A stretch of DNA of 64,000 nucleotides from Escherichia coli (GTDB lineage: Bacteria > Pseudomonadota > Gammaproteobacteria > Enterobacterales > Enterobacteriaceae), in NCBI RefSeq assembly GCF_044324875.1, contig NZ_CP172185.1, one strand, 5' to 3'. The position numbers and the translations under genes are program-made. The notes beneath the pieces were generated by a model. It was not told the DNA's origin, ran no database searches, and saw only the letters and a list, made by a program, of their open reading frames with translations. Shown one piece after another: positions 54,826 through 56,608 of this stretch. How positions within the stretch are numbered: the first letter of the stretch is position 1; each line of letters begins with the position of its first letter.

Positions 54826-55051
54826 AATGGGTTCCCTTCTGATTAGTCATACAACCTGTTTGAATTGGTACGACAGGTTAGCAAACTTTAATACGCCGAA
54901 CCCCTGTTTTGATCAACTCCTGATGATTAATGAGCAGTTTTATGAGAAAAGTGTGGCGCGGATCATGGTTTAATCGAGGAAACAGGCCTTTTCTTGGATC
55001 ATAAAGTGGTAGAACACATTGCATTTAAATCGCTCTGAGTAAATAAAGATG

Positions 55052-56470
55052 TCAGACAACTTCCTCACCGTAACGCATAGTGCTGGTACGGTTGCGCCCA
55101 TCTTTCTTCGAGCGATACAGACACGTATCGGCTTCGACCATCAATTTATTAAAGTCATCGGTCAGCGTTCGGTACGATGCGCATCCACTACCGACGCCAA
55201 TACTTACCGTGAGATAAAGCGTTTTTTGTTGCCAGGTGAACGGTTGCAATTCAACGCCTTTACGGATTTTTTCCGCCATTAGCAAACCATCGACAGGATT
55301 CACCGACGGCACTGCAACAGCAAATTCTTCGCCGCCCATTCGCGCCACCAGCCCCTTATCACCGACAATCTTCTGAATATGCTGGGCAAACACGCTTAAC
55401 ACTTTATCGCCACATTCATGTCCATAGTTATCGTTAATGCTTTTGAAATAGTCGATATCAAGCAGCATGACAGTCAGATGTTGTGTCTGTTTCAGCGATG
55501 GACTTTTCAGCGCCTCATAAAGACCGGACCGTGAGTAAACCTGAGTCAGAAAATCAAAGTCGGCTCGCAGCGCAACTTGCTTCATTAGCGAATTGATCGC
55601 TGCCACGCTAAAAGAAACCATAATTGGGCATATCGCCATCGTGGCAATACCGAGACGTGCGGAGAACATTTGCGGAATGGAGAACGGCGAACCGACCGAG
55701 ATATCAATCACTGAATTTGCCACCAGTACGATTTCCACCGCACCGGTGACAAAGGTCAACAGACATGTTACCTGCGGCGTATAGCGCACTGCACACCAGA
55801 TTAATGCAGGCAGCGGGAACGCCAGACTCCCCGCTCCGCCAATGACTACCGAGGCAATAACCGACACAATAAGCGCGATAGCGGGCATCATCTGTTCTGC
55901 TTTAAAGCGCGGCAGCACTCCAGGAATTGCCAACGTCAGCATACAAGGCACGATCAACACGCCCGTTGAGAATTGCTCACTGAACCAGTCGGCAAGCAAA
56001 GGCCAGAAATCCAGACTATCAATACTGACCGAACCAATCGCCCCGACAATAGCGCATAATAATGCGGCAATCAGACAGTAATTAAATAGCCGTAAGGCAC
56101 TTACTGGCTCATACTTATTTTTCCCCAGACGCTTATCCCGCGCGACCAGTAAGGCGACGGTAACAATAAACATCATATTGGAGAAATTGATAGCCAGTGA
56201 AACCAGCCCCCATTCGGTGGTTATGGCATCATAAACCAGCATTGCCACATAACTGATCGCATAGTAATGCAGTCGATTAAGCCAGACATAGCGGGCAAAC
56301 ACCCCCGCCATTACGCCATTCAGCGGCCAGAAAAGAGAAAGTTCGTGAACCAGCCGTAACTCTGCACCAATAAAATAGAACAGCGTGGTTAGCGCAAAAA
56401 TAGCGATGCTATTACGTAGCAGATGACCTTCCTGGAACAAACGGAAAGTTGAAATGGGCTGTACATGCAT
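55052..56470 (-). CDS. dgcF: membrane-anchored diguanylate cyclase (GGDEF) DgcF/YneF
   Basis: 472-aa ORF: multi-helix membrane N-domain followed by a GGDEF domain with RMGGEEF active-site motif; start codon uncertain. Confidence 0.85.
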   Translation of the reverse strand: MHVQPISTFRLFQEGHLLRNSIAIFALTTLFYFIGAELRLVHELSLFWPLNGVMAGVFARYVWLNRLHYYAISYVAMLVYDAITTEWGLVSLAINFSNMMFIVTVALLVARDKRLGKNKYEPVSALRLFNYCLIAALLCAIVGAIGSVSIDSLDFWPLLADWFSEQFSTGVLIVPCMLTLAIPGVLPRFKAEQMMPAIALIVSVIASVVIGGAGSLAFPLPALIWCAVRYTPQVTCLLTFVTGAVEIVLVANSVIDISVGSPFSIPQMFSARLGIATMAICPIMVSFSVAAINSLMKQVALRADFDFLTQVYSRSGLYEALKSPSLKQTQHLTVMLLDIDYFKSINDNYGHECGDKVLSVFAQHIQKIVGDKGLVARMGGEEFAVAVPSVNPVDGLLMAEKIRKGVELQPFTWQQKTLYLTVSIGVGSGCASYRTLTDDFNKLMVEADTCLYRSKKDGRNRTSTMRYGEEVV

Positions 56471-56608
56471 TAATTATCTGTCCATACAATTGCGGGTGGC
56501 AATTATCTCAACGTAATAAGTAAATTCTTATAAAGGATAGCATGTTCGCTGACAGCGGCGGCAAATAAAGATATCCTGGGAATGCTATTTTATCGTTTTC
56601 CGCGATTA

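Follow-up and report, generated by a model that had tools for sequence, protein, structure and literature searches.

Why is the diguanylate cyclase DgcF (YneF) annotated with 315 amino acids (aa) in Escherichia coli K-12 and with 472 aa in other strains, and which of the two is the normal protein? The question is raised by a window of E. coli DNA, by which we mean the whole stretch of 64,000 nucleotides (nt) analysed here (contig NZ_CP172185.1 of RefSeq assembly GCF_044324875.1). In this window the dgcF (yneF) coding sequence (CDS) occupies 55052..56470 on the minus strand, is 1419 bp long including the stop, starts with ATG and encodes 472 aa. An initial annotation made from the letters alone had described this open reading frame (ORF) and had supposed that the shorter K-12 protein might only reflect a different annotated start. 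We are highly confident that the window carries an intact, ancestral dgcF for an inner-membrane diguanylate cyclase with a divergent MASE1 domain, and that the 315-aa form of K-12 is the remnant of a deletion.

The ORF itself held up, as did its RMGGEEF motif (residues 377–383). A TAA lies in frame two codons 5' of the ATG, so 472 aa is the longest ORF that dgcF can have. In strain 042, RefSeq has the same 1419-bp CDS as a “sensor domain-containing diguanylate cyclase” (WP_000558440.1), with uxaB on one side and yneG-glsB-sad on the other, and the identity of the dgcF region is 100% with E. coli ECA64 and 99.9% with strain 042. The locus is present in 5,414 of 5,426 complete E. coli genomes, and the window has a non-K-12 allele of it. 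This allele does not differ in anything material from the dgcF (yneF) described in pathogenic E. coli and in Shigella (Richter 2014, Sarenko 2017, JBC 2024), which is the same gene; its 472-aa product begins with a hydrophobic N-domain of some 300 aa, has GGEEF and lacks an I-site. The window allele does have a few private substitutions, such as Cys430 (55181–55183) and Gln363 (55382–55384), where K-12 and the largest E. coli cluster (P0009) have Arg at both positions; the two codons are within the GGDEF domain and are not among the invariant positions listed below. Matches to the dgcF region also occur on five plasmid-classed records, which are public records and not part of the window.

The shorter K-12 protein that the initial annotation mentioned is real. 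MG1655 dgcF (b1522) is 948 bp and encodes 315 aa, and the gap between uxaB and yneG is approximately 500 bp shorter there than in strain 042. We placed the K-12 junction by exact seed extension from both flanks against MG1655, and this showed that a 498-bp segment, present in the window at 56038..56535, is absent from the K-12-type allele. The MG1655 junction is at L002 5893/5894, and the exact extension found no microhomology there. The lost 498 bp include 65 bp 5' of the ATG, the ATG, and with it 433 nt of CDS (codons 1–144 plus one base), and the coding part covers the predicted transmembrane (TM) helices TM1–TM4 and part of TM5. In K-12 the annotated start is the TTG codon for Leu158 of the full-length protein, within TM6, and there is no ATG, GTG or TTG in the 29 in-frame codons between it and the preceding stop. 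The length of the K-12 “DgcF” reflects this deletion and not a choice of start codon on identical DNA, which means that differing annotated starts do not explain the gap. The K-12 protein is a remnant from which the likely promoter, the ribosome-binding site, the start codon and the first 144 codons were removed. Residues 158–472 are still nearly identical to the window protein, and the locus is still between uxaB and yneG, but the K-12 gene is not expressed and its TTG start is misassigned. None of this is new as such: the long DgcF, the K-12 deletion and the discrepancy in length have been in print since 2014, when Richter et al. published the 5' deletion and the start misannotation (PMC4287979). 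The K-12 deletion was the reason why Sarenko et al. (2017) used the DgcF of strain 55989, and DgcF protein was undetectable in K-12 (PMC5635695).

We also weighed the alternative that all strains have the same DNA here and differ only in the annotated start, in which case translation might begin at an internal Met and yield a soluble GGDEF protein. The annotated K-12 product of 315 aa would fit this, and so would the weak Shine-Dalgarno sequence before the ATG at 56470. However, the deletion mapping has already refuted the shared-DNA part, since K-12 physically lacks the 498 bp with the ATG; the start annotated in K-12 is a Leu codon inside TM6 and not a Met, and its remnant protein is undetectable. 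The conservation of the long form also stands against it. Using the N-domain alone as the query, we found orthologs of 472–482 aa in E. fergusonii (87% identity), Citrobacter (76–85%), and Enterobacter and Lelliottia (71–75%). Met1 is invariant in the alignment of orthologs and common to five genera. Conservation starts at Phe9, spans the whole N-domain, and is at least as strong as across GGDEF. The gene order in E. fergusonii, sad-glsB-yneG-dgcF-uxaB, is the same as in E. coli.

The ratio of nonsynonymous to synonymous substitution rates (dN/dS) against E. fergusonii was 0.045 for codons 1–144, 0.042 for codons 145–300 and 0.054 for codons 301–472, values that are approximate as dS is saturated at this distance. 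Third codon positions hold 71 of the 108 differences in codons 1–144. These values clearly point to purifying selection on the DgcF protein, including the stretch that K-12 lacks. Initiation only at an internal Met is untenable because of the N-domain orthologs, the invariant Met1, the synteny and the low dN/dS, and we give the alternative practically no credence. Judged by its conservation, the 472-residue form is evidently the translated, normal and ancestral DgcF of E. coli.

Upstream of the gene, the 70 nt 5' of the ATG (56471..56540, minus strand) are conserved with E. fergusonii, and sequence farther upstream is not. Almost all of this block is within the K-12 deletion, and we consider it a putative promoter and 5' untranslated region. 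Within it are an extended -10-like motif, TGAGATAAT (56510..56502, minus strand), and a weak GGA Shine-Dalgarno sequence (56483..56481, minus strand). A consensus promoter scan did not list the TGAGATAAT site because it has no -35 hexamer. The best sigma-70 consensus match in the scan was TTGCCA-18-GATAAT (10/12), at 56473–56502 on the minus strand, and it ends 2 nt 5' of the ATG. This match is unlikely to serve the dgcF ATG, as it would yield a leaderless or internal transcript, and TGAGATAAT looks like the better promoter candidate. A scan of 54826–55051 and 56471–56608 found no intrinsic-terminator-like sites between yneG and dgcF or after dgcF, so it is possible that transcription from sad-glsB-yneG runs into dgcF. 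An Rfam search found no RNA element at the locus. Expression of yneF was reported to be weak and mainly RpoS-dependent (Richter et al. 2014, PMC4287979).

How widespread is the deletion? Of the 5,426 complete E. coli genomes, 4,196 have the 498-bp segment and 1,217 (22%) have the exact K-12 junction, using a threshold of E<=1e-12 for the junction search to exclude 30-bp half matches. All but one of the 5,414 genomes with the locus are covered by these two states (5,413 in total). Because the junction is identical among carriers, it suggests that the K-12-type deletion arose once. In a sample of 60 evenly spaced carriers, only about a quarter were recognisable K-12 or laboratory strains. The others, whose genomes reach up to 5.3 Mb, had been isolated from humans, from pigs, poultry, cattle, a capybara and a frog, and from soil, cheese and wastewater. 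To call the deletion K-12-specific (PMC5635695) is too narrow, because its carriers are mostly natural isolates. Annotation of the allele is not consistent: the Prokaryotic Genome Annotation Pipeline (PGAP) calls it a pseudogene with “missing N-terminus” in one stool isolate from India and a normal CDS in K-12-like records.

Two other kinds of altered allele turned up in E. coli. Strain HS-02 (NZ_CP172818.1; L008 545–1609) has an independent degenerate dgcF, in which the two halves of the K-12 junction are 393 bp apart instead of 558 and for which PGAP reports an internal stop and a missing N-terminus. In some E. coli contigs the full DgcF N-domain (98% identity) is followed not by GGDEF but by the C-terminal domain of HipA (PF07804), as in P0005 (514 aa) and P0008 (460 aa). 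Such a fusion may have arisen by a deletion that joined dgcF to hipA, which is about 20 kb away on the K-12 map, or may come from faulty assembly.

We next consider what the intact protein would do. Its GGDEF catalytic domain covers residues 303–461 (55088..55564, minus strand) and matches Pfam PF00990 with E=4.5e-41 and 140.7 bits against a cut-off of 23.8, over model positions 1–161 of 161. NCBIfam TIGR00254 gives 130.6 bits against a cut-off of 37.4, and both scores place the window DgcF in the GGDEF family; the domain also has the GGDEF fold. The A-site motif GGEEF (residues 379–383; 55322..55336, minus strand) is invariant in the orthologs. Where an RxxD would be expected five residues upstream of it, the protein has GDKG (residues 370–373; 55352..55363, minus strand), which puts DgcF outside the product-inhibited I-site class. 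The window DgcF is predicted to be a competent diguanylate cyclase.

This prediction is consistent with what has been published. Richter et al. (2014) described full-size YneF as having some 300 aa of hydrophobic N-domain and an intact A-site and as lacking an I-site (PMC4287979), and the table of Spurbeck et al. (2012) has a “GK” entry for yneF, consistent with an absent I-site (PMC3484386). S. flexneri DgcF raises cyclic di-GMP (c-di-GMP) as measured by liquid chromatography-tandem mass spectrometry, and a GG to AA mutation abolishes the rise (PMC11327459). In CFT073, deletion of yneF led to less biofilm and less adherence, and WspR restored both (PMC3484386). Table 1 of the CFT073 study shows YneF with only two transmembrane segments and no named domain (PMC3484386), which suggests that it rests on a short gene model of the K-12 kind.

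The initial annotation had also described a multi-helix membrane part of roughly 300 residues in front of GGDEF, and both hydropathy and structure prediction bear this out. Mean Kyte-Doolittle hydropathy is +1.0 over residues 1–295 and -0.23 over the rest. AlphaFold2, run on the full length with an alignment of 50 sequences, gave a model with a mean predicted local distance difference test score (pLDDT) of 91.6 and a predicted template modelling score of 0.85. In this model ten helices lie between residues 17 and 304 (17–37, 49–60, 67–84, 89–111, 122–151, 155–179, 191–210, 213–229, 232–251 and 267–304), and a model of the N-domain only (pLDDT 86.9) agrees on the ten. The tenth, TM10 (residues 267–304; 55559..55672, minus strand), is predicted to run as a single helix into the GGDEF domain with pLDDT >90. 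If GGDEF is taken to be cytoplasmic, 10 Lys and Arg residues fall in loops on the cytoplasmic side and 1 in loops on the periplasmic side, so both termini are predicted to be cytoplasmic. The predicted periplasmic loops are only 2–15 residues long. Comparing the two halves of the N-domain with each other gave no sign of an internal duplication (E=0.27). We describe residues 1–300 (55571..56470, minus strand) as an N-terminal membrane domain of divergent MASE1 type with ten predicted TM helices.

The kinship with MASE1 comes from the relatives of DgcF, as Pfam and NCBIfam scans of the window protein returned nothing for residues 1–300. Searching residues 1–298 against 1.84 billion cluster representatives gave 406 relatives at E<=1e-3, nearly all of them 460–490 aa long. 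From these we took 50 diverse N-domain homologs, of which 38 matched MASE1 (PF05231), with a best E of 3.2e-11 and over model positions of approximately 5–290 of 299. A hidden Markov model (HMM) of the family N-domain matches the MASE1 domain of E. coli DgcE at residues 5–252 (E=5e-11), and hhalign against the DgcE N-terminus gave E=1.7e-4 over 212 collinear columns. An HMM from close orthologs only (A1) was too narrow and did not reach DgcE. The output domains of the 50 relatives were GGDEF in 47 cases and HisKA-HATPase_c-REC, with or without Hpt or PAS, in the remaining three. According to the published description (PMC6510439), a MASE1 domain has about 290–300 aa and ten TM segments and is placed in front of c-di-GMP enzymes and histidine kinases, and the DgcF N-domain agrees in length, in TM segments and in domain partners. 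We conclude that it is probably a divergent MASE1 domain, which falls short of the strict Pfam threshold.

The nearest well-known comparison is DgcE (YegE), with the architecture MASE1-PAS3-GGDEF-EALdeg. Both are membrane diguanylate cyclases in which the first 300 aa or so form a ten-TM domain. DgcF differs in that it has no PAS or EAL domain, so its membrane domain is joined directly to GGDEF, and in that it is too divergent for the Pfam MASE1 model. We know of no RdcA/RdcB-type partner for DgcF. A sensor-type membrane domain on a predicted competent cyclase domain, in a protein with a conserved Met1 and a dN/dS of 0.045 over its first 144 codons, agrees with the suggestion in the initial annotation that the long form is a sensor-coupled cyclase.

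With periplasmic loops this short, a signal, if there is one, would have to be sensed within the membrane or via a partner protein. Most probably such a signal would alter the packing of two DgcF molecules, and the change would travel down the continuous TM10 helix to the GGDEF domains. TM10 would in this way gate whether the two GGDEF domains join two molecules of guanosine triphosphate into c-di-GMP. As there is no RxxD inhibitory site, synthesis would proceed with no product feedback.

Several points weigh against reading DgcF as a MASE1-type sensor cyclase. To our knowledge there is no known signal or ligand for DgcF. The topology and the mechanism of transmission are derived from models. 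E. coli DgcF has no Pfam MASE1 match even at E<=5, where the gathering score is 29.8 bits, and most of the PF05231 scores of its homologs, at 16–27 bits, are also below that score. Because most of the homolog matches fall short in this way and the E. coli protein has none, the MASE1 assignment of DgcF is transitive. The family HMM matches PdeF only weakly and does not match UhpB, and hhalign against a crude three-sequence alignment of K-12 MASE1 domains gave a probability of 2%. One study saw no inhibition of motility by ectopic “DgcF” (PMC10127611); its construct may have been the K-12 remnant.

Alternatively, the N-domain could be a mere membrane anchor or localisation module that senses nothing, with activity set by the level of RpoS-dependent expression and by turnover. 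The lack of a known ligand and the periplasmic loops of 2–15 residues would both be expected of an anchor, and one part of the role of the DgcE MASE1 domain, that in proteolysis, could be replaced by two LacY helices (PMC6510439). Against this, a plain anchor does not need 300 residues with polar and aromatic positions that stay near-invariant across relatives of 22–43% identity. These positions in the N-domain are W48, P49, N51, R60, D81, N98, W162, P175, G211–G214, W225-C226-A227 and R272. The same N-domain is also reused on histidine-kinase outputs. We consider the anchor unlikely and prefer the sensor-coupled cyclase.

A more speculative question is what such a domain might bind. In predicted structure, the core of the DgcF N-domain shows a possible resemblance to the six-helix fold of the S-components of energy-coupling factor (ECF) transporters, which are membrane proteins with vitamin-binding sites within the bilayer. 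As the comparison uses a predicted structure and does not specify which helices align, we treat an S-component-like fold as a lead and not as a finding. DgcF has ten helices and not six, and it has no detectable sequence similarity to the S-components RibU, FolT, ThiT, BioY and BtuM (7–15% identity). A profile search of the PDB sequences found no relative of the N-domain, and a Foldseek search of the PDB had no significant match (best E=0.66). There are no ECF T or A genes (EcfT/EcfA) near dgcF, whose neighbours are uxaB, yneG, glsB and sad, and the literature that we searched contained no published link between MASE1 and S-components. We rejected DgcF as a member of the S-component family, given that it matches no PDB chain in sequence and has no EcfT/EcfA module nearby. 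That a divergent MASE1 domain has a core with the S-component fold is a long shot in our view.

Since the reference strain is K-12, studies of “DgcF” that are based on K-12 clones or coordinates deal with a non-expressed remnant. What the present analysis adds is that the deletion allele extends beyond K-12 and is common in natural isolates, at 22% of complete genomes, and that the placement of the N-domain with MASE1 would link DgcF to sensing of the DgcE, PdeF and UhpB type. If the S-component-like fold does reflect function, MASE1-type domains could be intramembrane modules that bind small molecules, and what a fifth of E. coli strains have lost with DgcF would be a cyclase gated by a ligand.
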